Below are positions 43,245 through 62,965 of a stretch of DNA of 64,000 nt, piece by piece (position 1 is the first letter of the stretch; each line of letters begins with the position of its first letter). Under the pieces are notes generated by a model, which ran no database searches, was not told the origin of the DNA, and saw nothing but the letters and a program-made list of their open reading frames with translations. The position numbers and the translations under genes are program-made. Source of the DNA: Candidatus Bathyarchaeia archaeon (lineage in GTDB: Archaea > Thermoproteota > Bathyarchaeia > Bathyarchaeales > Bathycorpusculaceae); the NCBI GenBank assembly GCA_049512075.1, contig JBEKXL010000006.1:58439-122438 (forward strand), given 5' to 3'.

Positions 43245-43329
43245 GCGGGGGTTGCCAAGCATGGTCAAAGGCGTAGGCCTGAGGCGCCTATCCTGTAGGG
43301 GTTCGTGGGTTCAAATCCCACCCCCCGCA
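43245..43329 (+). tRNA. tRNA-Leu(GAG), integration target
   Basis: GCGGGGG/CCCCCGC acceptor stem, TAGGC-CT-GAG-GC-GCCTA anticodon arm, long variable arm; no encoded CCA. Confidence 0.96.
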
Positions 43330-43653
43330 TTCTAATTTAGGCTTATTCTGAGCTTGATTAGCCGAAATAAATTCACTTTAGGACTTTAGTGTGCGGGGGC
43401 TAACAATTGAACACATGTTTACCGGTAAAATACTAAGGTTATCCCACATTTTATTGACGAGAATTTATAGCAGTCTCCATGCGACTCTGATTGTACGCAC
43501 ACTGGAGACCGAGTAACTCAATTTTGCAGTGTTTCAGAGAAGAAGCACACACTATATATGAGCGAGTCCGCTAGGATTAGACCCCAAACGGGGTCGAGTC
43601 CAGCAGCCAGATCATGCTAACCAAGTCCATAATTCAGGGCGGCGCTTTCCTCG

Positions 43654-44016
43654 TCAAAGGAGACCTGCTATCTGTGTGGCTAAAAAACTCGCCACCTCGG
43701 AGACCCTAAAGGGCCATGCATATGTTATCGGAATTTCAGGGTGTTGTGCTTGCGCGGTTTTTACAGCAGCAGGGATGTCCACTTCGGCGTGCTCACCCCC
43801 GCGTGTCATCATCGGCGTTACCACAATGACTTTCTCGGCTCCCCGTGCTATGGCATGGCTGACTGCATCGTCCACACTGGGAGCACAGAATTCGTTGAAT
43901 CCCACGATCACCTCACACCCAGTCGCCTCACTCAGGTGTGCTCCCAGCTCTTGAGACCCAGCATAGAAGGGATCGTTTTGGGCTGTACGCGTCCACCCGC
44001 GCATTTTAGCATCGAG
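43654..44016 (-). pseudogene. 5'-truncated CbiX/SirB-like chelatase
   Basis: GFNEFCAPS and MMTRGGEHAEVDIP present; N-terminal HG motif absent; ends against AGCGCGCGCGCT. Confidence 0.7.
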
Positions 44017-44084
44017 CGCGCGCGCTGAACAACAGCCATGGCCTTTGACATGATATCAGAGAAATCACCCTGAACACGTATGGC

Positions 44085-44351
44085 TTGGCTAACGTTTGGG
44101 ATGACGGGATCAGGGGTAACTACTGGAGCGACTATCTGACGCAGTATCCGAACGCCGCTGAAATAGACAGCTCAGGCGTCTGGAACACACCTTATGTCAT
44201 CGACACGAACAATACTGACCATTATCCGCTTATGGTTCAATATGTAATTCCAGAGTTTCCATCGATTCAAGCTACGATGTTTTTCATATTATTAACACTA
44301 CTAACAGTCATAATCTACAAAAAGAAAGGCGTGAAAACAAGCCAAAGTTAG
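44085..44351 (+). pseudogene. C-terminal fragment of a NosD-like surface protein with PEF-type sorting signal
   Basis: GNYWSDY...DHYPL followed by IPEF + TM + KKK; no signal peptide or N-terminal region. Confidence 0.75.
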
Positions 44352-44426
44352 ACAGAACAGAGAAAACGCAATAACCAACCATTCTCCTACGTGCGGCTAT
44401 GAATTATAGTCAAAACATAGCGATTT

Positions 44427-44440
44427 TGGTAGCCCGGGAG
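44427..44440 (-). repeat. tRNA(Gln)-like 3' end fragment CTCCCGGGCTACCA
   Basis: Acceptor 3' strand + discriminator + CCA; related to 49562-49587 and 58683-58711. Confidence 0.55.
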
Positions 44441-44759
44441 TTACCGTTCCCAGACTGTAATTTATACCGGAATTCCACCTTTTTTCCTTAGATTGTAGGT
44501 CGCTGGTATCTATACCTAATTAGGTTCAGATACAGTCGCGCGCGCTGAGAAATTGGGGAGTCGTTTCCACAAGCGCGCGCTCAGAACTGTGAATTTCAAT
44601 TCCTATTTCAGATTCATCAAAAAAAATCCAGCGCGCGCTTTACACGCAATGACCCGCTTCTTGACAAGGCTTATTGATTGAAGCTTCCATTTGTGGAGCG
44701 CATCTACGAAACGAGAACGTTTAAGAGTTGAATAGTTCATACGTAACTTTTGAACTCTC

Positions 44760-45929
44760 ATGAGGTTGAAGGGTCTACCGCTCAATCTAGACATGTATAA
44801 AACTTCTGAGACGCTGACGAACAAGCATTTCAAAGAATTTAAGATGCCTGAATTTGAAGTGGTTTACCTTCCCGAAAGCATGAGACCTTTCATGATCCTC
44901 AACCCCTTAGACACGAAAGAGTTCATCGTAGACGACAACAGAGGAGCAGTTGCCGCTTTACCCTCCTTGAAATTGGACGGCACTGATTTTTACCTTTCAG
45001 TTAAGGGCGTAGGTTCAACAGCAAATCCCTTCTCTCATCAGCTTCTAGGGAAAGCAGAGATTTGCAGCCTGCTGAAAGATACCCAACTGAAAGATAGAAT
45101 CATAAACTCTGAGGAAAAGATTCCGCGATACCTCACAGGGGAATTATGGCTAAGAGGCTCCCCATATGGAGGACAGGGACTTGAGCACGCGTCTACTTCG
45201 ATGAAAATCTCAGAAATGGCTGACCTTACCTCCATTCATGGATTTCGAGTCGCGCCTCTTGTCAAAATAGTTTTCATTCCTAAAGATGTTGAGAACGAAA
45301 TCAAAGAAATATATTGGTACCGCAGGTTTGCTGGAAGGATTGTTCAGGAAACAAGAATTGTTCCTTCCAATGTGAGGATTTATTTTCATTCCAAAACCAC
45401 AATCGGCGGGAACATAAGCGCAATCTTCAACTTCTTCGGAATAGATGAAAATGACAAAGCATTACAGTTTTTGAAAAACTTCATCAAAAGCGGGCTTGCA
45501 TTCCTAACGTTGTTCACTAGATCAATAAAGAGCAATGAGGATGGAACTTTCAGTGGGCTAGATTTCTATGATGTCTGGCTGGACAAAGATGCAGTGCTCG
45601 CTCCTGACGGAACCATTTACTTTGTAGATCTTGAAGGCTTGGAATGGATAACTGTTCACGAAAAAAAAGTCCATGAAAAGATAGACGATCAAATATACAG
45701 GTCACTCTACGAATTCATGTTTGCCTACGAACAGATAGAACGAGAACGATCTAGAAGGTTCGGGCAAGTTACAGACAGGAAAACTCATTTTGAATGTCTT
45801 CTTAGGGAGGCTCTCAAAGACGATGAAGTTGTCGATCTCGCGCGTGAGGGACATAGTCTAATGCTTGTTGTAGGTAACATTCTGGGAGAGCAAGGCTTAA
45901 TTAAGAAATTTCCAATCATTGACTGGTAG
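44760..45929 (+). CDS. hypothetical protein, probable atypical kinase-like/SelO-like fold
   Basis: SVKGVG and D...D...YFVDLE motifs; family assignment is inference. Confidence 0.6.
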   Translation: MRLKGLPLNLDMYKTSETLTNKHFKEFKMPEFEVVYLPESMRPFMILNPLDTKEFIVDDNRGAVAALPSLKLDGTDFYLSVKGVGSTANPFSHQLLGKAEICSLLKDTQLKDRIINSEEKIPRYLTGELWLRGSPYGGQGLEHASTSMKISEMADLTSIHGFRVAPLVKIVFIPKDVENEIKEIYWYRRFAGRIVQETRIVPSNVRIYFHSKTTIGGNISAIFNFFGIDENDKALQFLKNFIKSGLAFLTLFTRSIKSNEDGTFSGLDFYDVWLDKDAVLAPDGTIYFVDLEGLEWITVHEKKVHEKIDDQIYRSLYEFMFAYEQIERERSRRFGQVTDRKTHFECLLREALKDDEVVDLAREGHSLMLVVGNILGEQGLIKKFPIIDW

Positions 45930-45934
45930 TAAAA

Positions 45935-47491
45935 ATGCAGTGCAACACCGCAAGAACATTCTTTTCTCAAATAGCTGGAAAGCAAGTTTCAATGCAAGTT
46001 TCACAAAGCGACTTGGATTTTCTTGCCACTAACGACTACGTCTCGGTCATTCAGAAAGACCAGTACGATCAGGCTCTGGCTGAACTCTCAAACCTGTCAA
46101 AAATGACCGAAGATCTACACGATGAAACTGTGGAGGAAATGACCGCGGAGGCCACTCTGACAAAAGAAGAAAGAAAAATCCATTCAATCCTGTTTCATCT
46201 TGAAGGAAAGGAGAAGAAAGAAGCCGAAATGCAAAACGTTGAAGCTGAAAGGAGCGTTGTCTCCAAAGAAAAAGCTGACATTGCAGAAGAAGACTCCAGA
46301 ATAAATGAGCTTCTTAAGAAAAAATCCATGATTGACAGGATGGTTCCATACAACGGGCTGTATCTGTCGCTTACTGGCCTCGGGGTAATGACGCTGAACG
46401 ATCTCAACGTCAGAAATTACAGGGTCTCTGAAACTGAGTTTTCAGACTTCATTCAGGAGCGCTTGGCTACTTATACAGAACTGCGATCTATAGCAGACAA
46501 GGGTAGCTTTTACGTATCCGCTCTTAAGATCGATTTTCCTGGCGCAGATCTCTCTCAATTGTGGTGTGTTTCAATAGGATTGGGGAAGCTTCAGGGCGAC
46601 CCAAATCAGATTAACCAGAGATTTCTCCTTTCACTCGGCATCGTTCAGCATTTCAAATCTAACCTTGAAAACAAGATGATGGCAGCGGAAGTCATGACTG
46701 CTTCTAAGGTGAACCCTTCTCAGGTGCCTACAAACTCTGATCTTCAAAACTTGGCAGAGACCCTGCGGAGTCTTGAAAAAAAAGTCAGGCGTGACGCTCA
46801 CGTTCCCAAAGAGCTTTCGGTTGGTGTTGCCGCTACTATTTTGTTTGCGAGAAGATATGACGGCACATATCCCATTGACAACCTTGTAGAATTCTCAAAG
46901 AGAACCCTTTCATGTGAAGCAGCCGTAATACTGTCTGTAATCAACGCGCCGTTAGAGGAAATTGGTGGCAAATTCCAACAGTTCAAATCACTGTTCAGTT
47001 CTTGGGGATATGAGGAATCAGAGGATACTGAAATCGCCTCAGCCTTCTTGGCAATTTCTGATTTGGCGCGAGATGAAGTGAAAGATAAGATGACCATAAT
47101 CCTAGATGCCCTTAAGAATTACTTGGAATATCCGCTCGTAGCCACTGCAATTCTCACTTCGATACCGACGCTTGAAGCTAATGAAACTCTTGACCTGATG
47201 GAAAAAGCTTCTGCCATGCTTGGAACTTTCGCGCCCAGCCTAGAACGTTCTGAACTGATAAGCCTCTCAGTCAGAATGATTCACGGAATCAAGAACGAAC
47301 TTGTAAAAGAACTTGATCCAACTGCGAAAATTGCAGAAACTCCTGTCCAGTTCACGTATGTCCCGTCAATAGTCTTCTTCAGGTACCATACGCCCTTGAT
47401 TATCGCACATTCATCATACCATTCTACGTTCAGCGCGCTTGGCGGTGCTCACCCTGCTCACGTGCACGGTGTTGGAGGTTTCACGGGTTGA
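45935..47491 (+). CDS. hypothetical coiled-coil/helical protein with His/Gly-rich tail
   Basis: 518-aa ORF tightly coupled to both neighbours. Confidence 0.75.
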   Translation: MQCNTARTFFSQIAGKQVSMQVSQSDLDFLATNDYVSVIQKDQYDQALAELSNLSKMTEDLHDETVEEMTAEATLTKEERKIHSILFHLEGKEKKEAEMQNVEAERSVVSKEKADIAEEDSRINELLKKKSMIDRMVPYNGLYLSLTGLGVMTLNDLNVRNYRVSETEFSDFIQERLATYTELRSIADKGSFYVSALKIDFPGADLSQLWCVSIGLGKLQGDPNQINQRFLLSLGIVQHFKSNLENKMMAAEVMTASKVNPSQVPTNSDLQNLAETLRSLEKKVRRDAHVPKELSVGVAATILFARRYDGTYPIDNLVEFSKRTLSCEAAVILSVINAPLEEIGGKFQQFKSLFSSWGYEESEDTEIASAFLAISDLARDEVKDKMTIILDALKNYLEYPLVATAILTSIPTLEANETLDLMEKASAMLGTFAPSLERSELISLSVRMIHGIKNELVKELDPTAKIAETPVQFTYVPSIVFFRYHTPLIIAHSSYHSTFSALGGAHPAHVHGVGGFTG

Positions 47492-48525
47492 CTTCAAAAT
47501 CGTTTGTTGTTATCGCACTTTTGCTGTCCTTAGCTCTGTTCTCGGTTCAGGCCTTCGCAGCCTATGTTCCTCATCAAGGAGATTATTTCAGTTATTATGA
47601 AGTTCAGAACTTGGGAAGCGGCACCGGCGATTATTCTGGATATACGGAACAGACAATCATTAACGGAACAGGAGCCATCAACGGGGTCACCGCAAACGGA
47701 ACAGTATCTGCCTACTACAGTTACTCGTATGATTTCAGCAACAGTTCAGGCTCAACAGAAACCGGAGGCTCGTCAGGAAATTTCACTTTTTCCTCAAACA
47801 ACTTCCTTTACATTAACGGAACCGACGACCAGACTGGATACGTTAACCCAACTGTCTGGTTCTGCATGGATAACTCGATCCCTGAGGGCGGAACCTTCAC
47901 CCTTCTGAACACCTTGATGACTGTGAAGTCCACGAATTACAGCTATTTCCTTCCCTCACAGAACAGAAGCGTGTACGCGATTTACGCTCAAGGAGAGTCA
48001 AGCTACGAGAGAAACGACGTATACGGACAATTCACTGCCACATACACCTGGGACACGTACTTTGATCCGTCTTCAGGATACATCATAGGGTACGACTATA
48101 CTGAACACGACAGTAACCCTTCAGGAACAGGGTTCACGTACACTGAAAATCTATACATTAATTCAGCCAGCTACCCGCTGACAACAGCTCCCACCGCCAG
48201 CCCTAACGGAAGCTCAGACTTAATGAAGGATGCCCTGTATATTGCAGCGATAGTCATAATCATCGCAATCATCTTAATCATCATCTATGCAGCTTCGAGA
48301 AGAAGGAGAAGACTCCAGAAACACCCGTCCCAACAACCGGTGTACACACCGCCAAGCGAACCTCCCTCGCCACCACCGCCACAAGATATCAATCTGACTC
48401 CAAAACAAGCTCCAGTGCAGCAAATCGTCATCAAGGAGGTAGTGAAAGTAAAGTGTCGTTATTGCGGAGCACTAATAGATTCCACTGCGGAGAAATGTCC
48501 TTTCTGCGGAGCTCCTAGAAGTTAG
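47488..48525 (+). CDS. membrane-anchored protein with Pro-rich linker and C-terminal zinc ribbon
   Basis: Signal peptide, Y/T/S/G-rich ectodomain, TM + RRRRR, CRYCG...CPFCG. Confidence 0.8.
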   Translation: MTSKSFVVIALLLSLALFSVQAFAAYVPHQGDYFSYYEVQNLGSGTGDYSGYTEQTIINGTGAINGVTANGTVSAYYSYSYDFSNSSGSTETGGSSGNFTFSSNNFLYINGTDDQTGYVNPTVWFCMDNSIPEGGTFTLLNTLMTVKSTNYSYFLPSQNRSVYAIYAQGESSYERNDVYGQFTATYTWDTYFDPSSGYIIGYDYTEHDSNPSGTGFTYTENLYINSASYPLTTAPTASPNGSSDLMKDALYIAAIVIIIAIILIIIYAASRRRRRLQKHPSQQPVYTPPSEPPSPPPPQDINLTPKQAPVQQIVIKEVVKVKCRYCGALIDSTAEKCPFCGAPRS

Positions 48526-48534
48526 ACACATCTG

Positions 48535-49347
48535 CTAGCTCTTCACTGGCTCCTTCCTTGCCAGATTCTTCTTGAAATATTGAAAAACCTGCCCAGACAC
48601 CCTCATTTGAGCCTTCAGTGCAATTCTTGAAGATGAAGGATTATAACGAGAAATCTCTGAAAATGCTGAACGTGCATGCTTTGACTTCAGCCATAGAAGT
48701 CGCGCATAAAGGATGTCTTCACCTATGCCTAACCTCCTGAACTGAGGTTTCACAAAAAGAGAGTGTATCCTTCCGATACTCTTAACAAATGAAACCCATC
48801 CTAAACCAGCAATCTCGCTGCCCAACCTGACAACAAAGCATTTGTCTCCATTCTTTAGGGCGATTTTTACCCATCTCCTGTTCATTCCAGCGTGCGCCAA
48901 AGCCATGAATCGCTCTATCTCACCTATTTGCCCCTCATCCGCCATGGAGATTTCATGGCTGAACCTGTGAACAATGTCATGATTCTCCAAGTCTATAGTG
49001 TAAATGTCATAAATCTCACTTTCAAACTCAGTTGTCAACTCCGCGAAGAGAAAATTAAACGGCTTCAATCCATAAAAGTAGTCAAACACTTCCCTCGATC
49101 TCGTGTAAACCGTTCCAGCCTTCTCAAAGTCGTCGTAAATGAATATGCCTGAAACATTATCTTCAGAAGTCCTAGATACGTAAGCCTCACCCCCTATTTC
49201 GAGAACCTCCCTGATGAAATATTGAAGATAAGGTTCAAAGAACGAGAAGCCATCTGGAAAAACAAAGTCGATATCAAATGCACTCGATAATTCGGAGACT
49301 TCCATTTCTTTCGATCCGCTCATGTTTGCAGATATAAAGTATCTCAA
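48535..49347 (-). CDS. GNAT family acetyltransferase
   Basis: LFVKPQFRRLGIG acetyl-CoA motif. Confidence 0.85.
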   Translation of the reverse strand: MRYFISANMSGSKEMEVSELSSAFDIDFVFPDGFSFFEPYLQYFIREVLEIGGEAYVSRTSEDNVSGIFIYDDFEKAGTVYTRSREVFDYFYGLKPFNFLFAELTTEFESEIYDIYTIDLENHDIVHRFSHEISMADEGQIGEIERFMALAHAGMNRRWVKIALKNGDKCFVVRLGSEIAGLGWVSFVKSIGRIHSLFVKPQFRRLGIGEDILYARLLWLKSKHARSAFSEISRYNPSSSRIALKAQMRVSGQVFQYFKKNLARKEPVKS

Positions 49348-49561
49348 TCTGATAAACTTGAGTTTTCATCGCATTCAAGCGCGCGCTCTATGAAGCTTTG
49401 AGTTTTTCTGAATAGCAAAAGCGCGCTAGACTGGGGAATAGTAGAGTGTATGCCGTTAGCGTCGGGTCGTATATGAATAGGGTGCGTCTGCACTCTCACA
49501 GTGCAATTAACCCTCATTTATACTTGATTTGCGAAGCCAAAATACATATTCTGGAGTTTGT

Positions 49562-49587
49562 TAGCCTGGGAGAGATTCGAACTCTCG
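49562..49587 (-). repeat. tRNA-like T-arm + acceptor fragment (CGAGAGTTCGAATCTCTCCCAGGCTA)
   Basis: Core GAGAGATTCGAACTCTCG identical at 58694-58711 and 61955-61972. Confidence 0.75.
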
Positions 49588-49747
49588 CACACATGCGGTT
49601 CTTGGAGGGAGGCGGACTTGAACCCGTTTGGGTATGGGGATGGGCGGCCCAATTATTCCTGAAGGTTGATAGTGGATGTTGAAGGCGAAAAGTCCAAGTA
49701 ATTCTACATACTTATTATGGCTTTGTATTTCCAAGGACGTAGAAATT

Positions 49748-50062
49748 ATGGGCAGGAAAAAGGTAACGATGTCACTTGGCACAAAGTGCCTTCAACTAAT
49801 CGACCACTACGCAGCAACAACTGGATTTGAGTCCAGAAGCAGAGTTATGGAAGAAGCAGTTTTCGCAGTTACCGAGCTTTTGGGTCATAGACGTATGTTT
49901 GCTCAGAAGGCTCAACAGTTGAAAGAAAATCCTTCTAAAGAGGAGATAATGAGAAGTCTTCTCTACATAGGTGACATCCTCTCGAAGTATGGTGCAGTTT
50001 TGGATAGATTCGAAAGATTCGCCGATGTTCCACTCACAGAGACAGTCGCGGGCAAGAAATAG
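49748..50062 (+). CDS. ribbon-helix-helix (CopG-like) protein
   Basis: KKVTMSL...IDHYA...SRSRVMEEAV; start set at MGRKK. Confidence 0.7.
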   Translation: MGRKKVTMSLGTKCLQLIDHYAATTGFESRSRVMEEAVFAVTELLGHRRMFAQKAQQLKENPSKEEIMRSLLYIGDILSKYGAVLDRFERFADVPLTETVAGKK

Positions 50063-50183
50063 AGTGCGCGCTATACAAAATAATAACGTCAACGTGAAGC
50101 GTCAGCCGAGCTGCTTTTTTCCAGCTTACAGTTCAGTCTGAACTTGTCGGCAGCTTTTCCGCGGCAAATCCAGGAGCGCGCGC

Positions 50184-50222
50184 CTACTTCTTCTTTCCTT
50201 TTTTCTTCTTGCTCTTTGGCAT
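50184..50222 (-). CDS. possible 12-aa Lys-rich micro-peptide MPKSKKKKGKKK
   Basis: ATG...TAG with GAGGT about 10 nt upstream. Confidence 0.3.
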   Translation of the reverse strand: MPKSKKKKGKKK

Positions 50223-50603
50223 CTTGCTCAAACCTCGCTAAGAACAAATAATTATGGTTTTTTGTTTATGAATTTTGTTAAATAGAAATACTGTTTAGCG
50301 CGCTGTTGTATTAAACAGAATTAACCCTTCAGGAGTGACTTTTCTAAAAAAAGAAAAGTATCTGGATTTTTGGCGAGACTTACTTTTTCTTTGCTGGTTC
50401 TTCAAATGTCTCGCAGGCTTTTGCAGCTTTACAATGCGGTCACGCTCTTGCGGAGGAACATAGCGCGCGCGCATAACCTATTTGGCAAAGTTTACGGTAA
50501 TCTTGGCGCGGACTAACTGCAACTGTAGGATGAAGTCTTCCAGTTTCAGCAGGTTCTGAACCCTTTCGGGTTTAGGGACGGGCAGACCTGCCAAAAAAGG
50601 GGT

Positions 50604-50751
50604 TTTACCGGTAAAATAGGGTGGGGGTCCCACCCCCCGCACTCTAATTTCAGGCACACTTCAGGCTTATTTCAGCTAATCAAACTCAATTCATGACGTT
50701 GTGGAAGGCCTGTGCGGGGGTTAAGAATTGAACATCCCTTTGCCGGTAAAA
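50604..50751. repeat. cassette junction repeat (E1/E2)
   Basis: About 148 bp matching 58734-58881 with about 8 mismatches; includes the att core. Confidence 0.92.
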
Positions 50752-51022
50752 ATGCTTGGGTTTCTGCGGCACGGGATAGGTTCGAACGCTCGTTCAAATA
50801 TGCTCGTTTACTACTATTTTAAGGGTGAAAAGCGCGCATGCGTGTTCCTAAATTGGTCTAAAATGGTTTTTATTCGTCTTTCTTAAGTCGAGGGCAGTTT
50901 GGGGTTCATATCTGTCCTTGATTCCTACGAGTACCTGTCTACTCTGAACACAGCAGAAACAACCAAAACGGAATTAAAACCATTTTTAACCATTTTCGGA
51001 ACAGGCATGCGCGCTACATGCC

Positions 51023-52261: not shown

Positions 52262-52472
52262 ACATTCGCCTGATTTCTAACTATAATAAACGGGCAGCTT
52301 TTAAGATTTCTCAAATGCAACGCTGCACGAGTTCCTATTCTTAATGACACAAAGCTACTGTACAGTTTTCAATGTTGGTGTATTTTAGAATCGTTGAATT
52401 GCAGAACCCGCAAAAGCAGAAACCGCAAAACATATTAGCGCAACGCCTAGATACTCTCGATAGAGAGGGATA

Positions 52473-56081: not shown

Positions 56082-56085
56082 GCAG

Positions 56086-56469
56086 ATGACCCGGATGACA
56101 ACAGGAAATGTTGGGCGAAAACGGAAGATGAGTGGCATAATCAGCGGACTCACAACAATCGTCGTTGGAATAATCATAACTGCCGTTCTGTGGTGGTTGC
56201 TCGGTGGATTCGGTTTCTGGGAACTCCCGGGCGTAGCGATACTGTTCATCGGCATCGGTGAAGTTCTCTACAAGATATACGTGGCAGGTACTGACAAGAG
56301 GACTCCGTTATTACGCGGAGGGATTCTTTTGATGTTCATAGGTTTGGCAGGTTACGTCAGCTTTGAGGGCTACTTCTTGTTTGGAACATTTCAAATACTA
56401 TCGCTAATCGCAACGGTCATCGGACTAGTGCTGCTCCTAGCGGGGTTCGTTTCAGCTTCCAAACACTGA
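56086..56469 (+). CDS. small four-TM membrane protein
   Basis: Four hydrophobic segments; operonic spacing. Confidence 0.75.
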   Translation: MTRMTTGNVGRKRKMSGIISGLTTIVVGIIITAVLWWLLGGFGFWELPGVAILFIGIGEVLYKIYVAGTDKRTPLLRGGILLMFIGLAGYVSFEGYFLFGTFQILSLIATVIGLVLLLAGFVSASKH

Positions 56470-56524
56470 GCAATCAAATCTGGTCTGAACGTCGTTGCGC
56501 GGCATTCAAAGGAAATGATGGAAA

Positions 56525-58444
56525 ATGTTAGGTTTTAACGGACAAATATTGCGGGTGAATCTGTCCAGTAAGAAAGCCACAAAAGACGTGTTCACAGAGG
56601 CTGATGCAAAAAAATACTTGGGTGGAAGAGGTCTAGCCATCAAGATACTGTTCGATGAGCTCAGACCAGGGATTGATGCGTTGGGGCCGGAAAACAAGCT
56701 GGTTTACGCGGCAGGACCATTTGCTGGAACGGGGTTCCCGTTGAACTCTCGCTGGATCGTGGCCGCAAAGTCGCCCTTGACTGGAATCTGGGGCGAAGCT
56801 GCTTGCGGCGGCACCTTTGCGGTCCAGTTGAGAAAGGCTGGCTATGACGCACTGGTTGTTGAGGGCGCATCCACATCCCCCGTGTATATCGACATAATGG
56901 ACGATGATGTGCAAGTCAAAAACGCTTCCCACCTCTGGGGAAAGATGACTTTAGACACAGAGATCGCCATAGCTCACGACCTTGGAATAAAAACACGTAA
57001 GGAAGATGACCCGGCGATCGTGTGCATCGGTCCAGCAGGAGAAAAACTAGTGAAAATGGCAAACGTTATGCACACCGCACATCGAGCCGCGGGCAGAACA
57101 GGCTTGGGAGCAGTGATGGGCTCTAAGAAACTCAAGGCTGTCGCAGTTCGCGGAACCAAGAACATTCCAGTCGCTGACCCAGAAAATCTGAAAAGACTAA
57201 CGAAGGCCACGGTCACCGAATGCACGACGAACAAGAGTTTAGTCCTTTTCTCCAAGTATGGACAAGCTGGTCTGGTGGATGTTTTGAACGAGAGCGGTAT
57301 ACTTCCAACCAAAAACTTCCAGAACGGAACGTTCCAGCACTACGAAAAAATAAGCGGAAGGACCATGGCCGAAACAATTCTCAAGAAGAAGAACGCTTGC
57401 TCCCAGTGTCCAATCGCCTGCAAAAGGATGGTGGAGGTCGATCGGGGATCCTACGCACCCATCGACGCAGGCTATGGTGGCCCAGAATACGAAAATGTCG
57501 CATCTTTGGGATCGCTCCTCCTAATAGGGGACTTGGAGGCAGTGTCAAAAGAGAACCAGATGTGCAACGCGTATGGAATAGACACGATCTCGGTAGGTGT
57601 AATAATTGCTTGGCTGATGGAGTGCTACGAGAGGGGAATAATCTCAAAGGAAGACATCGATGGCATAGAAGCGACATGGGGCAACGCTGAAGCTGCGATG
57701 AAACTCATCGAAAAAACGTCTACTCGCGAGGGTATAGGGAATCTCCTCGCCGAAGGCATCAAGAAAGCAGCGAAGAAAATAGGCAGAGGCTCAGAAAAGT
57801 ACGCGATGGAAGTCAAGGGTCTGGAGGTTCCGATGCATGAACCCAGGGGCAAAAAAGGCGTCGGCTTGGCGTATGCGATTTCCGCAAGGGGAGCATGCCA
57901 CATGCAGGCCTTCCATGACACGGATACCGAAGCCGAGAATGTTGCACCCGAAATCGGAATTTCGAAAGGGCTGAACAGACACGATACCTCCAAAGACAAG
58001 GTCGACATGGTCAAGAAATCACAAGACTGGGTCGCCGTCACCAACTCTCTCCTGCTATGCACAGCACCCGCATGGGTCGGGTTCGACTACACGAAACCCA
58101 CCTTCTTAGTTGAAACATTGAACGCCATCACGGGAATGAACTTCACAGTAAACGAGCTGATGACCATAGGAGAAAGAATGAACAACCTATGCCGATGCTT
58201 CAACGTAAGAGAAGGCACAACCAGAAAGGACGACTACCTACCACCGAGATTCACAGAAGAACCCCTCCCCGACGGTCCATCAAAAGGACAACGCATAACC
58301 AACGAGGAACTCCAAAAAATGCTCGACAACTACTACGAGCTGAGAGGATGGAACAAGAACACAGGAATTCCGAACCGAGAAAAACTCATCGAACTCGGAC
58401 TCGAGCATGCGGCAAAAGCCATTGAAAAACACCTCCAATCTTAG
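56525..58444 (+). CDS. aor: aldehyde:ferredoxin oxidoreductase (W-dependent AOR family)
   Basis: KSPLTG, GRTGLGAVMGSKKLKA, CxxCxxxC, PEYE and DTIS. Confidence 0.95.
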   Translation: MLGFNGQILRVNLSSKKATKDVFTEADAKKYLGGRGLAIKILFDELRPGIDALGPENKLVYAAGPFAGTGFPLNSRWIVAAKSPLTGIWGEAACGGTFAVQLRKAGYDALVVEGASTSPVYIDIMDDDVQVKNASHLWGKMTLDTEIAIAHDLGIKTRKEDDPAIVCIGPAGEKLVKMANVMHTAHRAAGRTGLGAVMGSKKLKAVAVRGTKNIPVADPENLKRLTKATVTECTTNKSLVLFSKYGQAGLVDVLNESGILPTKNFQNGTFQHYEKISGRTMAETILKKKNACSQCPIACKRMVEVDRGSYAPIDAGYGGPEYENVASLGSLLLIGDLEAVSKENQMCNAYGIDTISVGVIIAWLMECYERGIISKEDIDGIEATWGNAEAAMKLIEKTSTREGIGNLLAEGIKKAAKKIGRGSEKYAMEVKGLEVPMHEPRGKKGVGLAYAISARGACHMQAFHDTDTEAENVAPEIGISKGLNRHDTSKDKVDMVKKSQDWVAVTNSLLLCTAPAWVGFDYTKPTFLVETLNAITGMNFTVNELMTIGERMNNLCRCFNVREGTTRKDDYLPPRFTEEPLPDGPSKGQRITNEELQKMLDNYYELRGWNKNTGIPNREKLIELGLEHAAKAIEKHLQS

Positions 58445-58682
58445 TACTCAAACACGGGGGCTCACATCCAACATAAGCCGCGCGCGCTGAGGAGGACTGT
58501 CGTTCGACGTTTAGGTCTGAGGGCTTTTCTTTCTATGGTGCCCTCGCGCCGATACATCTTATCAGTCAGATCTCTCGATATCTCCTCGGTGCTCCAGCCC
58601 CTGCCGAGCATAGCGGCCAGCTCACTTCAAGGCTAGACTTCCAAAAAAGGAGGGAATTTAGTATAAGTTCACGCTTGAGCGT

Positions 58683-58881
58683 TGGTAACCCAGGAGAGAT
58701 TCGAACTCTCGCCAAGCATATCCAGTATGCTTTTTTACCGGTAAAGTCGGGTGGGGGTCCCACCCCCCACACTCTAATTTCAGGCACACTTCAGGCTTAT
58801 TTCAGCTAATCAAACTCAATTTATGACGTTGTGGAAGGCCTGTGCGGGGGTTAAGAATTGAACACACGTTTACCGGTAAAA
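58683..58881. repeat. cassette junction repeat (E2/E3) with reversed tRNA-like 3' end
   Basis: Minus strand GAGAG-TTCGAAT-CTCTC-CTGGGTT-A-CCA, then TTTACCGGTAAA, att core and left-end repeat. Confidence 0.9.
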
Positions 58882-58992
58882 CCTTGCATTCTGGAGCGCG
58901 GGATAGCTTCAAACTCTCGGTTCAAACTTTTCCTGCGTACACTGCTGTTATTCCTCCCCAGCCAACAAAAAGAAAAAAGGATGGTGGTTGGT

Positions 58993-59496
58993 TTACTCCG
59001 CCAGTTTCTTTCTCAAGAATTCTCTTCGGTCTTTTCTTTCTAGTTTTTCGATTTCTGCTTTGTATTTCTCACGAATCAGTTTCAGCTTGCAGTTCGTGTA
59101 CAGCGCGTCATATACGGGGCTTGTCTTGGCGATGGTTTCATAATCGTCTTTTGAAACGATGCCGAAACCTGTCATGACGGCTTCCATTCCGGCGGCTTCG
59201 GCAGCCATCTCCATTTTGTCCGTGTCGGCAGCTCGGACGATTTTTGCTAACTCCAGGACTGCAGGATCCTTTACCTTGTACTTGTCTATAATAGCGTCGA
59301 AACTGCACTTGTCTCCGTGATGTCCGAGTTCGACTCCTGGTGCATCGTAGGGTATTGCCTTCTCTTTTTTGACTGTCTCCTCAATCTTTTCTACGGGAAC
59401 GAATAGGAATTCGGCTTTCGGGTCTATGAATCGTTTTATTAACCATGGGCATGCGGTTCTGTCTACGTGCACGAATAGTCTTGTTACCCACTTCAT
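58993..59496 (-). CDS. chromate resistance protein ChrB-domain
   Basis: MKWVTR..HVDRTACPWLIKRFID...CSFDA; start set at MKWVT. Confidence 0.88.
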   Translation of the reverse strand: MKWVTRLFVHVDRTACPWLIKRFIDPKAEFLFVPVEKIEETVKKEKAIPYDAPGVELGHHGDKCSFDAIIDKYKVKDPAVLELAKIVRAADTDKMEMAAEAAGMEAVMTGFGIVSKDDYETIAKTSPVYDALYTNCKLKLIREKYKAEIEKLERKDRREFLRKKLAE

Positions 59497-59510
59497 GCTT
59501 TTCATCAACA

Positions 59511-59720
59511 CTATTTGGCTTTCAGTTCTTTGATGCGTTCCTGTACTGCTGCAAGTTCGTTCTTCAGTTCTTGTGTGTACTCTTCTAGTTTCTTGATTTT
59601 CTCTTCTTTCGTTAGAAAGCGGCGAGTGAACTGTCCATATCCGTGGTGGCCTTCGCGCCAACAACGCCCGCCAAATCCATGGTGTTCTTCGCCATGTTCT
59701 TCATGCATACTTTTTTTCAC
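59511..59720 (-). CDS. small His/Gly-rich coiled-coil protein (DUF5320-like)
   Basis: RRFLTKEEKIKKLEEY...ELAAVQERI. Confidence 0.7.
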   Translation of the reverse strand: MKKSMHEEHGEEHHGFGGRCWREGHHGYGQFTRRFLTKEEKIKKLEEYTQELKNELAAVQERIKELKAK

Positions 59721-59808
59721 ACTCTCTTATGTAGATTAACTACTTATCACAGTAGAATATCTACTTACATAAGTTTGACGTCAAGATGAGTTCAAGCTGG
59801 TTTGCAGC

Positions 59809-61047
59809 ATGAATATTACGTCTGACAAAGTGGGAAAAGCCGTCTTTTGGACACTGTGCGTAATGGGAGTCTTTGCAATCCTGAGCTCGACAATGTCTAA
59901 GACTCTGCTTAATCCCTTTGCTATTGCGCTGGGCACGCCTACTGATTGGTCAGGCTTTGTGGGTGCGGCTTCAACCATACCGGGCATTCTAATCAGCCTC
60001 CCTGCGTCTTCGCTTTCCGACATTTACGGCAGAAAGAAGTTCCTGCTAGCATCAGGCTTCGTGTTTGCAACCGCACCTTTCTTCTACCTTTTCATATCAA
60101 CATGGTGGCAGCTCATACTCGTCAGGTTCTACCACGGGTTTGCAACTGCCATCTTCGTTCCCGTAGCCGAAGCCTCGATGGCCGAGTTGTATCCGTCACA
60201 GCGAGGAGAACGCATATCACTCTTCACATCTGCAACGTACGTCGGCAGAAGCATCGCACCTTTCCTCGGAGGATACATACTGTACAGCACCGCAAGCACT
60301 TCCGACCCCCTGTACAACTATCACGTCATGTACCTTGCGGTCGCAGCGGCCGGGCTAGCTGCCTTCGTGATGGCACTGCTGTTTCTAGCTGAAAGAAAGC
60401 CACGCATGCTCGCTGCATCTAAAAAACAAGACACTTTAAGGCGAATGTACGCTGGATGGGGCGCCTTGGCCAAGAATCATGCAGTGTTGGCTGTCAGTTT
60501 TGTGCAGGCCAGCTTGTACTACTCGTTCGGGACGGTGGATTATTTTCTCTCCGGATACTTGAAGGATACACTGCATTTTGACTTCTTCTCAACGGCCGCT
60601 GTTTCGGGCAGCATCATTGTGCTTGCTATCTTCGTAAGAGCTTACATGGGAAGAGTCTCGGACAGAACAGGCAGACGAAAGCCCATAATAGTCGGCCTGC
60701 TGATATGCTCCGTACCGTTGGTTGTCATGCCGTTTTCTTCGGACCTTCGAGTTCTCTTGCTGTTGGCTCTGATCTATGGATTCGGCTTCGCTACAGCGAC
60801 GGCGCCCACAACTGCTCTGATAACGGAGCTGGCACCGTGCGAGTTCATCGGCACCTCGACAGGCTTCTTGGACACCATGATGGACATCGGGCAGACTATT
60901 GGTCCCATAGTCGGAGGGTTCATCCTCGGAACGAGCTTTGGGTACTTTGGCCTATTTCTGTCACCCACTGTAGTCCTGCTCTCTGCTTGCCTAGTCTTCG
61001 CCCTGTCAGGAGTTGCGAAAAGAAAAATCAACCGTGTTGAGGTCTAA
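59809..61047 (+). CDS. MFS transporter
   Basis: SDIYGRK and SDRTGRR motif A copies; about 12 TM segments. Confidence 0.92.
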   Translation: MNITSDKVGKAVFWTLCVMGVFAILSSTMSKTLLNPFAIALGTPTDWSGFVGAASTIPGILISLPASSLSDIYGRKKFLLASGFVFATAPFFYLFISTWWQLILVRFYHGFATAIFVPVAEASMAELYPSQRGERISLFTSATYVGRSIAPFLGGYILYSTASTSDPLYNYHVMYLAVAAAGLAAFVMALLFLAERKPRMLAASKKQDTLRRMYAGWGALAKNHAVLAVSFVQASLYYSFGTVDYFLSGYLKDTLHFDFFSTAAVSGSIIVLAIFVRAYMGRVSDRTGRRKPIIVGLLICSVPLVVMPFSSDLRVLLLLALIYGFGFATATAPTTALITELAPCEFIGTSTGFLDTMMDIGQTIGPIVGGFILGTSFGYFGLFLSPTVVLLSACLVFALSGVAKRKINRVEV

Positions 61048-61976
61048 TGTCTCATCATTGGGGTTACGTAAGCGCTATCACTTCTGCAATTTTGTTCGGA
61101 ATAAGCTCAACCCTCAACAAAATCGCATTGCAGAATGTTAATCCCACCCTCGTAGCGGGAATGATCTACTTCATCGGCGGGGTTCTCCTCCTCGGAATCC
61201 ACTTCACTCCACTCTCCAAAAAGATTCTTTCCATGCTCAAAACGCCGGGAACAGAGGAGAAAATACTGAAGAAGGACTTGAGAGTTCTAACCCTTGTGAT
61301 TGTATGCGGCTCGTTGATCGCACCGTTGTTGCTCCTGAACGGCCTGAACCAGACCACAGCCATAAACGCATCGCTACTTCTAAATGCGGAGTCCCTATTC
61401 ACCGCCTTCTTAGCTTTTGTATTCTTGAGCGAACGAGGAAAGAGAGGTGAATATCTTGGAATTCTCATTCTGCTTGTCGGCGTGGTCTTCGTGGCCACAA
61501 ATGGAGAATTCCAGAGACTCACTCTAACAGAAAACATTCCCGGCAATCTCCTGATAATTGGCGCATGTCTGTTCTGGGGAATAGACAACAACCTAAGTAG
61601 ATTTCTCAGCAAGAAGAAAGATATCATATTGGTGACCGCATTGAAATGCTTTTTCGGAGGATTGGCCTTGCTCATCATCTCTTTTCTGCTCGGCGTTAGC
61701 TTTAGCATATCATTGGCATCGATACCTTACCTGTTGTCCGTGGGAGCCCTCAGCGTCGCATTCTCAATCTTGTTGTTTCTTTTTGCCCTTAGAAAAATAG
61801 GTTCGATGCGAACAGGAGTCATCTATTCTACATCTTCACTTTTCGGAGCCGTTTTCGCGTTTGCAATGTTGAGAGAGTCTTTCAGTCCCATCCAAATGAC
61901 AGCCGGACTAGTAATGGTTTTGGGCGTTTACGTCCTTTACCGCTATGCGCCCGCGAGAGATTCGAACTCTCGTTAA
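61047..61976 (+). CDS. EamA/DMT family transporter; 3' end fused into cassette end
   Basis: Two EamA repeats; last codons (RDSNSR*) come from the repeat at 61955-61972. Confidence 0.9.
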   Translation: MSHHWGYVSAITSAILFGISSTLNKIALQNVNPTLVAGMIYFIGGVLLLGIHFTPLSKKILSMLKTPGTEEKILKKDLRVLTLVIVCGSLIAPLLLLNGLNQTTAINASLLLNAESLFTAFLAFVFLSERGKRGEYLGILILLVGVVFVATNGEFQRLTLTENIPGNLLIIGACLFWGIDNNLSRFLSKKKDIILVTALKCFFGGLALLIISFLLGVSFSISLASIPYLLSVGALSVAFSILLFLFALRKIGSMRTGVIYSTSSLFGAVFAFAMLRESFSPIQMTAGLVMVLGVYVLYRYAPARDSNSR

Positions 61977-62961
61977 GCATAATCTGAGCATATTTTTGCC
62001 GGTAAAGTCGGGTGGGGGTCCCACCCCCCGCACCATCATTGAACACCCCGCAATCAACGAGATTCTGACCAAGTATCTGAACTATCTGCTCTGCAAGAAG
62101 GCATTGAAGCCAGCTACTATCAAACGAAAGGTCAAGACGATTAAGAGCCTATTGAAGCATGGCGTGGAACTGCCTAACCCTGATAATGTGATTGCTTTTC
62201 TGAATACTTGCAGTTGGGCTAGCGGAACAAAGGACATTACAATTGACGCTTATCGAGACTACCTCAACATGCTGGGGTTGACGGAAGTCAAGTTGCCGCA
62301 TATACGAAGAGAAGAGACATTACCTTTTGTTCCTTTGGAAGAAGAACTTGATTCCGTCATTTCAAGTGTTAGAACGAAGATGGCAACGTTCCTTCGAGTG
62401 TTAAAAGATACTGGTGCACGACCCATCGAGGCATGGACTTTGAAATGGACTGACATCAGCACAACCAGCAAATGTGTAACAATCACACCAGCAAAATACA
62501 GTCATGCAAGAAAACTCGGCATCACAGAGCAGACATTGAACATGCTTCTAGCCCTGCCAAAAAAGAACCAATATGTGTTCTCTCCGAGCGGTCAAAAAGA
62601 AAGATTCGGTGACGAACTGGAGTACTTCGCTATGAATTTCGTCAAAGCAAGAACCAGAGTAGCAAATAAACTGCAAAACCCTAGAATCAAGTTGATTAGT
62701 CTGAGGACTTTTCGTCATTGGAAAGCGACAATGCTCTATCATAGAACAAAAGACATTCTATTTGTCAAAGAAAGTCTTGGACACGTCAACATTCAGAATA
62801 CGCTAAGGTACATACATTTGGCAAATGCTGTTGCGACTATTCAAGACGAATATGTGTGCAAGGCGGCTAAGACTGTGAAAGAAGCATCAGAACTGATTGA
62901 AAACGGATTTGAATATATCTGTGAACTTGATGATGCGAGATTGTTCAGGAAAAGGAAGTAA
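61945..62961 (+). CDS. tyrosine recombinase/integrase spanning the att site
   Basis: TGAR, RTFRH (RxxR in place of HxxR), LGH and catalytic Y (LRYIH); start uncertain. Confidence 0.92.
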   Translation: MRPREIRTLVKHNLSIFLPVKSGGGPTPRTIIEHPAINEILTKYLNYLLCKKALKPATIKRKVKTIKSLLKHGVELPNPDNVIAFLNTCSWASGTKDITIDAYRDYLNMLGLTEVKLPHIRREETLPFVPLEEELDSVISSVRTKMATFLRVLKDTGARPIEAWTLKWTDISTTSKCVTITPAKYSHARKLGITEQTLNMLLALPKKNQYVFSPSGQKERFGDELEYFAMNFVKARTRVANKLQNPRIKLISLRTFRHWKATMLYHRTKDILFVKESLGHVNIQNTLRYIHLANAVATIQDEYVCKAAKTVKEASELIENGFEYICELDDARLFRKRK

Positions 62962-62965
62962 AACC

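Follow-up and report, generated by a model that had tools for sequence, protein, structure and literature searches.

How do three packets of genes with no recombinase of their own come to lie one behind another at the 3' end of a single tRNA gene? The question is raised by a window of 64,000 nucleotides (the whole stretch of DNA that was analysed) from the 2.7-Mb genome of an uncultured Bathyarchaeia archaeon, in which three integrase-less gene packets follow a tRNA-Leu gene and the array terminates in a tyrosine integrase whose reading frame spans the fourth copy of a short repeat (Table 1). Judging from sequence comparison, we think it probable, if well short of certain, that three non-autonomous integrative cassettes have accreted in tandem at the 3' end of tRNA-Leu(GAG) and are mobilised in trans.

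Table 1. Features of the array and its flanks (positions in the window)
Feature	Position	Strand	Description
tRNA-Leu(GAG)	43245..43329	+	ARAGORN; Rfam tRNA, 54 bits; last 14 bases (43316-43329) are core (att) copy 1
Left end LE1	43330..43432	+	spacer LE-a; LE-b (inverted tRNA-Leu 3' copy) ~43389-43417; palindrome TTTACCGGTAAA 43418-43429
Cassette E1 cargo	43433..50553		CbiX-like protein, three no-family proteins (one with zinc ribbon), GNAT acetyltransferase, small ORF
Right end RE1 (degenerate) and core copy 2	50554..50641	+	palindrome 50604-50615, then GGGTGGGGG; core 50628-50641
Left end LE2	50642..50751	+	LE-a; LE-b ~50709-50737; palindrome TTTGCCGGTAAA 50739-50750
Cassette E2 cargo	50752..58683		Fe-alcohol dehydrogenase (-), amino-acid permease, BPL_N-domain protein, small ORF, aldehyde:ferredoxin oxidoreductase
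Right end RE2 and core copy 3	58684..58771	+	GCCAAGCAT; palindrome 58734-58745; GGGTGGGGG; core 58758-58771, one mismatch
Left end LE3	58772..58881	+	LE-a; LE-b ~58839-58867; palindrome 58869-58880
Cassette E3 cargo	58882..61944		ChrB-C domain protein (-), MFS transporter, EamA transporter
Right end RE3 and core copy 4	61945..62032	+	tRNA-Gln-like piece ~61948-61973; palindrome TTTGCCGGTAAA 61995-62006; GGGTGGGGG; core 62019-62032
Tyrosine integrase ORF	61945..62961	+	Phage_integrase, Pfam E 1.1e-13
TaqI_C-like specificity-domain ORF	63159..63779	-	domain matches
Multi-copy repeat closing contig	63874..64000		C6:122312-122438; matches C52, C8, C25, C3 and others at 99%; common to many contig ends of the assembly

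Layout of the array

As the initial annotation had it, the 3' end of the tRNA-Leu gene, a 14-base core TCCCACCCCCCGCA, occurs four times, always on the plus strand, the third copy with one mismatch (G to A); 0.02 copies would be expected by chance, and none of 100 shuffles gave four matches. The core copies are spaced 7312, 8130 and 3261 bases apart and delimit segments of 7.3, 8.1 and 3.3 kb whose cargo is unrelated from one to the next, and the direct repeat bounding cassettes is always 14-15 bases. Within the window CCA is confined to the last copy, but this has no weight, because in relatives the tRNA-Leu followed by the cassette start often reads CCA too. The contig, and with it the window, stops 1 kb past the integrase.

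Cassette ends and the junction module

Where the right end of one cassette meets the left end of the next a module is formed that reads, in order, TTTACCGGTAAA, N3 and GGGTGGGGG, the tRNA-Leu core of 14-15 bases, ~65 bases of spacer, the tRNA-Leu 3' end in an inverted and degenerate copy, and a second TTTACCGGTAAA. The earlier description of the array as being without classical attC sites understated the matter, as the junction is itself an imperfect palindrome of ~150 bases, attC-like in its position between cassettes. The shared end motifs are present as first written, att-CTAATTT...TGTGCGGGGG...ATTGAACA...TTT(A/G)CCGGTAAA on the left and TTT(A/G)CCGGTAAA-N3-GGGTGGGGG-T-CCCACCC on the right, and the E1/E2 and E2/E3 junctions are identical in 141 of 149 aligned columns. 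The right end of E1 is degenerate, with a different hairpin, GGGCAGACCTGCC, in place of the tRNA-Gln-like piece of RE2 and RE3. RE2 contains the reverse complement of a tRNA-Gln 3' end including CCA (~58683-58711), a degenerate tRNA-Gln-like repeat follows LE2 at ~50773-50795, and the conserved inner stretch of LE1 extends to ~43588. Past the repeat the right end still looks like the tRNA, with GTGGG..CCCAC as a T-arm whose loop is shortened; because it lacks the tRNA T-loop, any crossover would have to fall within the 14 shared bases.

Sixteen right-end/left-end junctions from 11 genomes have a mean column identity of 78% over 156 columns, with the palindrome and the inverted tRNA copy as the most conserved stretches. 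A sequence model built from them (threshold E<=1e-5) matches 79 of 150 other genomes of the family, in 47 of 69 other genera and up to 14 times per genome, and 10 of 135 genomes of the class outside the family, mostly weakly. The exact right-end pattern was found in 14 stretches among 185,579 species genomes, all of them titled Bathyarchaeia or Bathyarchaeota. Matches usually lie in arrays anchored at tRNA-Leu(GAG or CAG) and enclose other cargo, with two to four modules at 1.5-8 kb spacing in long contigs, one of these of 2.0 Mb; wherever a called tRNA gene adjoins a left end it is tRNA-Leu (10 of 10 junctions, six GAG and four CAG). A search for the same ends with other cargo and in other orders, which the initial annotation had named as its test, was thus positive in the studied genome and in roughly half of those genomes of the family that were searched.

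Cargo, integrase and the question of decay

The cassettes are multi-gene, 1.5-8 kb in size, with genes in both orientations, their own regulators and accessory genes only. That the three segments hold no recombinase was borne out by Pfam for the 15 ORFs scanned (ten belong to other families and five to none) and by NCBIfam for six, four of the five unassigned ORFs and two others. More widely, no recombinase, replication or virion genes were detected in cassette cargo among 40 proteins by Pfam and eight by NCBIfam, and the sole tblastn match to the integrase inside the arrays was a translation of a right end.

The integrase had been placed after the array; the array does end at the integrase, but the ORF overlaps the last core copy and is in frame through it. 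Because the part kept among relatives begins ~8 codons past the core, 62035-62958 represents the conserved integrase protein, and relatives with an ATG integrase start have the start codon 1-3 bases after the core. This integrase would be part of a separate small element using the same core, of which the TaqI_C-like ORF is probably cargo; elements bearing an integrase share the core, with repeats of 9 to 24 bases. A classification as IntI was rejected, the NCBIfam integron-integrase model giving 49 bits against a cut-off of 265.

Could the segments instead be decayed autonomous elements that lost their own integrase, the shared ends being attP flanks of one element family and no cassette moving today? 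Tandem integration at one tRNA followed by loss of the integrase gene has been described for archaea (PMC8371274), and many junctions are degenerate, among them the E1 right end, a decayed junction in G068:C1 and incomplete left ends beyond the final right end. The close type of integrase is also rare among genomes that hold modules: it was found at 94% identity in one of the 150 other family genomes, against 79 with modules, two more have it at 52-53% with an internal stop, and in the module-rich congeners G145 and G068 the closest integrase reaches only E ~1e-51. This would mean a different helper enzyme, poor binning of the helper, or cassettes that are for the most part stranded. We nevertheless consider such a fossil pile-up unlikely, as the place where an integrase would be expected holds the same structured ~110 bases in 36 examined junctions from many genera, which would not be expected of independent decay, and none of 19 cassettes contains an integrase remnant. 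The small size and purely accessory content of the cassettes argue likewise, as does the occurrence of the same cassette at different tRNA-Leu genes and array positions. One with 7-8 genes (PadR regulator, two ABC transporters, Rieske protein, NAD-binding protein) occurs in three genera at ~80% amino-acid identity, lying at tRNA-Leu(CAG) in G083, in part at tRNA-Leu(GAG) in G116 and behind another cassette in G139.

Mixing of partners at the core

At the core CCCCCCGCA the left partner may be the tRNA, a cassette right end, a partial T-arm or an integrase promoter-like stretch (TTTTAAAC..TATAAAC), to each of which a cassette left end has been seen joined, and the right partner a cassette left end, an integrase or unrelated flank. 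In 17 relatives the integrase is preceded by the tRNA (13), a partial T-arm (two) or the promoter stretch (one), with one undetermined; a cassette right end joined to the integrase is found only here (0/17 relatives). Such mixing at one core is what site-specific recombination yields.

In the congener G126 the same tRNA, with a homologous upstream flank, is followed directly by the 94%-identical integrase, with a second core copy 4.95 kb further on, and relative to it the 18.7-kb array fits exactly between ...CCCCCCGCA and CCATCATTGAACAC. Different content stands behind the same tRNA in four congeners with an upstream flank 83-95% identical. The cassette lying first behind the tRNA in G068 also occurs in the studied assembly (contigs C51 and C29; 97-98% identical), there behind another cassette. 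A contig from public run X5 differs from E3 at six of 3103 letters and then continues for 2059 letters unlike the window after 62004; the right neighbour of E3 therefore differs between close strains.

If cassettes are mobile, a circular cassette would carry one module as its attP, and a tRNA-Leu-specific tyrosine integrase acting in trans would exchange strands inside CCCCCCGCA with the tRNA gene or any core copy in an array, so that cassettes could be added, excised and reordered. Since the integrase is joined here to a cassette right end, at least one exchange of the integrase type used a cassette-borne core copy, although this junction does not prove cassette movement because the integrase element could have integrated into the distal cassette core.

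A further reading dispenses with such exchange, or makes it at most ancient, and treats the 150-base modules as portable homology arms or a spread palindromic repeat, between which cassettes would be exchanged by ordinary double crossover or by gene conversion. In a pair of cassette copies that are 98% identical, homology begins with the inverted tRNA copy rather than with the core, the spacers being only ~65% alike, a sign of homologous recombination or conversion within modules; the X5 contig leaves the window inside or just past the right-end palindrome, and the palindrome and inverted copy are the parts best conserved. As the only process at work, however, homologous recombination seems quite unlikely. 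Junctions between tRNA and left end and between right end and integrase break exactly at the 14-base core with nothing shared beyond, and the 9-14 bases at which four unrelated left partners join three on the right are too short for this process. Nor are the modules scattered through the genome, whose 12 copies of TTT[AG]CCGGTAAA all belong to modules, either on the array or on small contigs with a module at the end. Homologous exchange in the conserved module parts would probably be a second route by which cassettes are shuffled, beside integration in trans.

Insertion at the tRNA-Leu 3' end by a casposase (Cas1) or other transposase, duplicating 14-15 bases of target, would account for the constant length of the direct repeat, and Cas1 homologues do exist in the genome (C37, C1, C2 and C43, with weaker partial matches on C7 and C1). 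Family 2 casposons of Methanosarcina give 14-base duplications, target tRNA-Leu and form tandem arrays sharing one duplication (PMC4779613). This origin is nonetheless very improbable here: the cassette termini beside the repeat do not form an inverted-repeat pair, Cas1 and PolB are absent from and beside every array examined and from the array contig, the likeness of the right end to the tRNA past the repeat fits an attP copy and not a duplication, and the integrase-bearing elements on the same core vary in repeat length.

That segment order and adjacency are a chimera made by a short-read assembler from near-identical repeats in a mixed population is scarcely credible. The order here does come from one short-read assembly that crossed repeats 95% alike, five further contigs of that assembly (C39, C51, C29, C7, C52) end in or near modules, its contamination is estimated at 4.19%, and in four runs the short public contigs stop at each module with none bridged. 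Contigs of other assemblies (one of 2.0 Mb, several of 150-620 kb) nevertheless show this architecture, the two junctions differ at eight of 149 positions, enough for long k-mers, and such an error could change the order here but not make modules or arrays.

Relation to known systems

The array is a new archaeal variant of accretion, with an integron-like logic but not an integron. CIMEs are usually seen as decayed ICEs or IMEs without a conserved structured end module and are found next to ICEs and IMEs in Firmicutes. They too are att-bounded DNA without an integrase, stacked in tandem at targets of the tRNA type, and the integrase of a neighbour is presumed to excise or co-mobilise them; here, by contrast, one ~150-base palindromic module recurs across genera and bounds small packets of accessory genes, in an archaeal host. 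The ssrA islands of Dehalococcoides likewise lie several in tandem behind one small-RNA gene, direct repeats of whose 3' end delimit them, and their accessory genes are strain-specific; 16 have a serine (CcrB-like) integrase together with a six-gene integration module, and some without that module are discussed as cis-mobilizable (PMC3146451). Their target is tmRNA, not tRNA-Leu, and no palindromic junction module is described in the parts of that account used here (PMC3146451).

The SSV-type (class I) 'suicidal integrases' are archaeal tyrosine integrases with tRNA targets and an att at or inside the 5' part of int (PMC7253208, PMC8371274), comparable to the ORF running in frame through the core. 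In the ATG-bearing relatives, however, the site is just upstream of the gene, not inside it, and the arrangement neither requires nor shows a separate N-terminal piece of the gene. The junction module also recalls another structure. In CTX phage the folded single-strand attP consists of two inverted, hairpin-forming dif-like sites, and here too two inverted target copies lie tens of bases apart and could fold into a hairpin, but the inner stem is perfect in just seven of 16 modules and a single-stranded stage would be purely an analogy.

The likeness to integrons, including those of archaeal MAGs (PMC9668308), is threefold: a tyrosine recombinase at one array end, accessory-gene cassettes with imperfect palindromes between them in which the crossover point lies, and many arrays with no integrase nearby (compare CALINs). 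The integron-like platform first proposed stands as regards standardised ends, integrase-less segments and partner mixing at one core, but not as regards the multi-gene, self-regulated cassettes in both orientations or the integrase, which is not IntI. Further differences are the primary site, which is the 3' end of a tRNA, the palindrome, which consists of tRNA-Leu 3' copies and has a conserved sequence, and the position of the array between the tRNA and the integrase.

Cassettes behind tRNA-Leu(GAG)

The last 14 bases of tRNA-Leu(GAG), TCCCACCCCCCGCA, here called the core, begin at 43316 and are found again at 50628, 58758 (with one mismatch) and 62019. Four copies compare with 0.02 expected by chance and none of 100 shuffles gave four matches, so that the fourfold repetition of the tRNA 3' end described in the initial annotation is borne out. 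The core copies mark off three cassettes, E1, E2 and E3, with core-to-core intervals of 7312, 8130 and 3261 bases and unrelated cargo genes (see the table), and no recombinase was found in a Pfam scan (for part also NCBIfam) of their 15 ORFs, again as that annotation had it. A tyrosine recombinase ORF is present at 61945-62961, with the last core copy lying inside it.

The 64-kb window (C6:58439-122438) ends where its contig ends in a 2.7-Mb, 86-contig assembly, and the order E1-E2-E3 in C6 is based on this one assembly, five other contigs of which stop in or near the junctions between cassettes. Of 24 public runs assembled as Logan contigs, four (X5, X6, X7 and X1) were compared to the window; their contigs cover all three cassettes and break at each junction, and show neither the order of the cassettes nor circles or empty sites. 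In X7 one contig runs from 50648 straight back to 43336, linking a right end to a left end of the E1 type (depth 1630, likeness 90%); its source is most likely a different organism of greater abundance, and it was not counted as a circle. Joints with a short side (20-39) at 49.6-51.0 kb are due to a multi-copy repeat, a gap in X5 cover at 62344-63000 was given no weight as holes in contig cover prove nothing, and contig depths were left out of the evidence.

Features of the tRNA-Leu array, its cargo and its junction module (positions are those of the window)
Feature	Position	Content or sequence	Basis
tRNA-Leu(GAG)	43245-43329		ARAGORN and Rfam
E1 cargo		CbiX-like protein, three proteins without family, GNAT acetyltransferase	Pfam
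E2 cargo		Fe-alcohol dehydrogenase, amino-acid permease, BPL_N protein, aldehyde:ferredoxin oxidoreductase	Pfam
E3 cargo		ChrB, MFS transporter, EamA transporter	Pfam
Module part 1		TTTTACCGGTAAA	16-junction alignment
Module part 2		N3 + GGGTGGGGG	16-junction alignment
Module part 3		core TCCCACCCCCCGCA(C)	16-junction alignment
Module part 4		spacer of ~65 bases, conserved words GAGCTTATTTCAGC, CAATTTAGGACGTTGTG	16-junction alignment
Module part 5		(TGTGC)GGGGGTTAAGAATTGAACAC	16-junction alignment
Module part 6		N3 + TTTACCGGTAAAA	16-junction alignment
tRNA-Gln-type reverse-complement copies	58683-58711, 61948-61973	at right ends	
Degenerate tRNA-Gln-type copies	near 50773-50795, 58900-58930	at left ends	

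The junction module

The E1/E2 and E2/E3 junctions are identical in 141 of 149 columns, and an alignment of 16 junctions of a right with a left end, taken from 11 genomes, defines a module of six parts. Before its second palindrome there is an inverted and degenerate copy of the tRNA-Leu 3' end, in which ~18 of 25 positions agree, by eye, with the reverse complement. This makes an imperfect palindrome of the whole module, and at every site both strands were matched by a left-end model. All 12 genome copies of TTT[AG]CCGGTAAA fall within modules. As single-stranded DNA the junction folds more stably than shuffles (z -2.4 to -2.9), and the junction with the integrase folds no better than they do (z +0.6); since only 7 of the 16 modules have an exact inner stem, a conserved hairpin is not claimed. 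A reading of the module as a permuted or split tRNA was rejected, there being no fit to a cloverleaf and Rfam matching the real tRNA alone in this region. Further in, ~160 bases inside the E1-type left end (43433-43588 in the window) are 93-98% alike in four cassettes, those of E1, contig C51 of the same assembly and the fetched loci L059 and L063, and beyond this segment their cargo diverges.

Outside the module, many right ends carry the final ~30 bases of tRNA-Gln(CTG), CCA included, in reverse complement, and many left ends have a degenerate direct copy just inside the palindrome. The cargo is therefore also bracketed by direct repeats of tRNA-Gln type, which may be a relic of another integrase system. 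The same repeats bracket ~4 kb elsewhere in this genome (C1:364723-368820), a stretch with a degenerate palindrome, no tRNA-Leu core and Cas1 genes nearby; a tandem repeat with a period of 156 bases lies close to it at C1:369652-370735.

Distribution of modules and their cargo

A sequence model of the module matches 79 of the 150 other genomes of the family (E<=1e-5), in 47 of 69 other genera and with up to 14 matches in a genome. Outside the family, 10 of 135 sampled genomes of the class have matches, mostly weak ones, and a single genome from a different family has nine. The exact right-end pattern, sought in 185,579 species genomes, occurs in 14 stretches, all titled Bathyarchaeia or Bathyarchaeota. 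Two module patterns gave no hits in IMG/VR when viral carriers were sought there, and the relatives of the integrase in that database are 33-39% identical (5 loci). Typically, in the 20 long loci, tRNA-Leu and the core are followed by left end, cargo, right end and core, with one to four such repeats, and wherever a called tRNA gene adjoins a left end it is tRNA-Leu (10 of 10 junctions; GAG in 6, CAG in 4). One such array sits in a contig of 2.0 Mb and the architecture is therefore independent of our assembly. The proposal of standardised ends in the initial annotation hung on the same ends occurring with other cargo and in other orders; both were found in the family genomes, and to this extent it survives.

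Modules without cargo, directly 3' of tRNA-Leu, were seen in G083 (L053, contig C3, ~15258-15296) and in G050 (L039, contig C14). Their order is core, CTAA, TTTAC(C/T)GGTAA, a few bases, a second core and a normal left end, and they may be empty cassettes or deletion products.

Nineteen cassettes of 1.5-7.9 kb hold 79 ORFs of at least 90 residues, between 1 and 12 in each cassette and in both orientations, with regulators such as PadR, HxlR and ChrB present; the first gene faces the left end in 13 of the 19 and the last gene faces the right end in 12. Among 20 of these ORFs from relatives, a Pfam scan identified ABC transporters (accompanied by a PadR regulator), Rieske, NAD-binding and solute-binding proteins, HxlR, NosD, a PIN protein, a GNAT, a large histidine kinase with PAS/GAF domains, a radical-SAM/SPASM enzyme and a STAND-like ATPase; three had no family, and none of the 20 is a recombinase, replication or virion protein by Pfam.

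Probable movement of cassettes

Several comparisons speak for cassettes moving as units. The flank upstream of the tRNA is 95% identical to the window in the congener G068, 86% in G145 and 83% in G126, and the DNA behind the tRNA differs in each of four congeners. On the far side synteny is found partly, on contig C21, for G068 and G145 and not for G126. The G068 cassette occurs in our own assembly at 97-98% identity (contigs C51 and C29). There the end of contig C39 consists of a right end, the core and an E1-type left end and overlaps C51 by 84 identical bases, so that in this genome the C51 cassette follows another cassette and not a tRNA. The ChrB-MFS cargo of E3 recurs in G068 at 95% identity; it is on a different contig there, preceded by a decayed junction from which core and left end have been lost. 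A cassette of 7-8 genes shared at ~80% amino-acid identity by G083, G116 (in part) and G139 is located at tRNA-Leu(CAG) behind a cargo-less mini-module in the first, in part at tRNA-Leu(GAG) in the second and behind another cassette in the third.

Between two copies of the C51 cassette that are 98% identical the high identity starts only at the inverted tRNA copy, the spacer being ~65% alike. The modules are therefore mosaics, and homologous exchange or conversion within their conserved parts must, as judged from these alignments, also be at work.

The core as a probable recombination site

Four unrelated sequences are found to the left of the core, namely the tRNA body, a cassette right end, a partial T-arm (for example GGTTCAAATCCC...) and an AT-rich stretch, TTTTAAACGACAGTATAAACCTAA, that resembles an archaeal promoter; to its right there are three, a cassette left end, the integrase and unrelated flank. 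The 36 left-end junctions have a right end on their left in 16 cases, a tRNA in 10 and another partner or unclassified flank in 10. Of 17 metagenomic integrases with at least 53% identity 13 follow a tRNA, two the partial T-arm and one the promoter-like stretch, with its ATG three bases past the core, one being cut by a contig end; none of the 17 follows a right end. In junctions of the promoter type the shared sequence is reduced to CCCCCYGCA. As these partners are joined combinatorially at 9-14 bases, we infer a site-specific recombinase acting at the core.

The congener G126 (8 contigs) has an integrase, 94% identical, directly on the orthologous tRNA-Leu(GAG), and a second core copy 4.95 kb downstream, with 24 bases of tRNA identity, closes what is therefore a small integrase element. 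By comparison the 18.7-kb array of the window sits exactly between ...CCCCCCGCA and CCATCATTGAACAC. Either the cassettes were inserted between tRNA and integrase, or the integrase element entered the core of the last cassette, which is at least as likely; since it holds for both orders, a cassette-borne core has served as recombination partner. A contig of run X5 matches E3 with 6 differences in 3103 letters and continues after 62004 with 2059 letters unlike the window.

The integrase

The catalytic domain of the ORF at 61945-62961 belongs to Phage_integrase (PF00589, E 1.1e-13, 51.8 bits against a cut-off of 27.1), and the R, K, H/W and Y positions are conserved across 20 aligned sequences. 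It is a generic tyrosine recombinase, and its homologues bear the name Bathyarchaeia in their source records. The best NCBIfam model is archaeal XerA with 65.7 bits (cut-off 220), and the IntI models score 49.1 bits (TIGR02249, cut-off 265) and 18.9 (PRK15417, cut-off 435).

The ORF is in frame through the core, here and where a tRNA adjoins the integrase, and VGSNPTPRT at the N-terminus of 9 of 19 aligned homologues is the translation of GTGGGTTCAAATCCCACCCCCCGCAC, gene callers having evidently set these starts inside the tRNA; the conserved protein starts ~8 codons past the core. Where relatives bear an ATG it stands 1-3 bases past the core (L136, L134). At this place the window gene and its closest relatives have ATC (62033-62040), so that they need a start further upstream, either a GTG in the T-stem or, for the window gene, an ATG or TTG within the right end. 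The idea that the right end is an N-terminal exon of int (MRPREIRTL..LPVKSGGGPTPR), in the manner of SSV-type elements, was rejected given frameshifting indels in right ends (C39, G018) and the differing hairpin of E1.

Among the 150 other genomes of the family the close type of integrase is rare, being present in one at 94% identity and in two at 52-53% with an internal stop, all on tRNA-Leu; it was absent from the module-rich G145 and G068 in a genome search. With matches in 106 of 151 genomes (our own included, E<=1e-40), the remainder form a clade of 40-48% identity that has a zinc ribbon and a tRNA on the opposite side.

The ORF at 63159-63779, downstream on the minus strand, has a TaqI-like specificity domain of the C-terminal kind and no other, and matches BREX methyltransferases weakly. 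Possibly the integrase element brought it along as part of a broken restriction or defence gene.

Comparison with known systems

In integrons the attC core is GTTRRRY, with R''/L''...L'/R' boxes between the cassettes. The initial annotation had called the array an integron-like platform, and in part this stands, in that the ends are standard. With regard to attC the observations point both ways: the junctions are imperfect palindromes, GTTRRRY is not evident by eye, and Rfam found nothing beyond the tRNA. IntI is absent, and in place of mostly single, promoterless ORFs in one orientation expressed from Pc the cassettes are multi-gene, bidirectional and self-regulated.

Among the nearest in logic is the accretion of cis-mobilizable elements, which have direct att repeats and no recombinase of their own. 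Here too the cassettes are bounded by direct repeats of the 3' end of the target gene, and recombination or transfer genes of their own were absent from Pfam and NCBIfam scans of the cargo, in which several proteins have no family at all. Likewise near are the tandem islands at ssrA of Dehalococcoides (PMC3146451) and integrons (PMC9668308). Family 2 casposons (PMC4779613) offer a precedent for a tRNA-Leu target with a 14-base repeat, and a repeat length of 14-15 bases fits casposons, but the cassette termini are not inverted repeats, and Cas1 and PolB within the element are absent by Pfam from this cargo and that of relatives. As to the hallmark of SSV-type systems, an attP inside int that splits the gene on integration, the frame open through the core and the ATG starts just past it in relatives point in opposite directions.

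Of the families defined by sequence features, the array system belongs neither to integrons nor to casposons, and we rate it as a new archaeal variant of accretion-type systems. No description of the module came up in literature searches on mobile elements of Bathyarchaeia, on archaeal integration at tRNA-Leu and on integrons in archaea; the supplements of PMC4779613 and PMC9668308 may hold cases from Bathyarchaeia.

A more far-reaching reading, less likely than not, is that genuine cassette capture has arisen in this family of Bathyarchaeia without any tie to integrons. In such a system the tRNA-Leu 3' end would be the primary site and the 150-base palindrome, with its direct and inverted tRNA-Leu ends, the cassette site, which may be used as a folded single strand or else through a dimeric protein binding TTTACCGGTAAA; the small tRNA-Leu-specific integrase element would be a roaming helper, and whole regulated operons would move among genomes and tRNA-Leu genes.

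Bathyarchaeia are abundant and uncultured, and to our knowledge almost nothing is known of their gene exchange. If the modules are active recombination sites, a uniform socket downstream of tRNA-Leu exists in about half of the genomes of one family and takes packets of transporters, redox enzymes and regulators; evolution would then have come to the cassette logic of integrons a second time, on its own path. With the site (~150 bases) and the integrase (308 residues) both defined, this can be put directly to the test, and the pair of module and integrase could serve as a genetic tool for archaea. Annotators should furthermore be aware that variable DNA behind tRNA-Leu in these MAGs consists of structured arrays that break short-read assemblies.

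Other repeats in the window

Three other repeats were observed. The first, of ~190 bases at 50831-51019, is bounded by GCGCGCATGC...GCATGCGCGC and has many copies in every genome of the genus at 78-82% identity; in the public runs its contig depths add up to a very high sum and short joints are numerous, and it looks like a MITE. The second, of 127 bases at 63874-64000, is 99% shared with the ends of many contigs of the same assembly and reaches at least 326 bases on C52, C40, C3 and C21; probably this is an insertion sequence at which the assembly broke off, 1 kb past the integrase. The third, at 44089-44385, overlaps an ORF of 88 residues and is multi-copy, with several copies, 79-94% identical, present in G126, G068 and G145.
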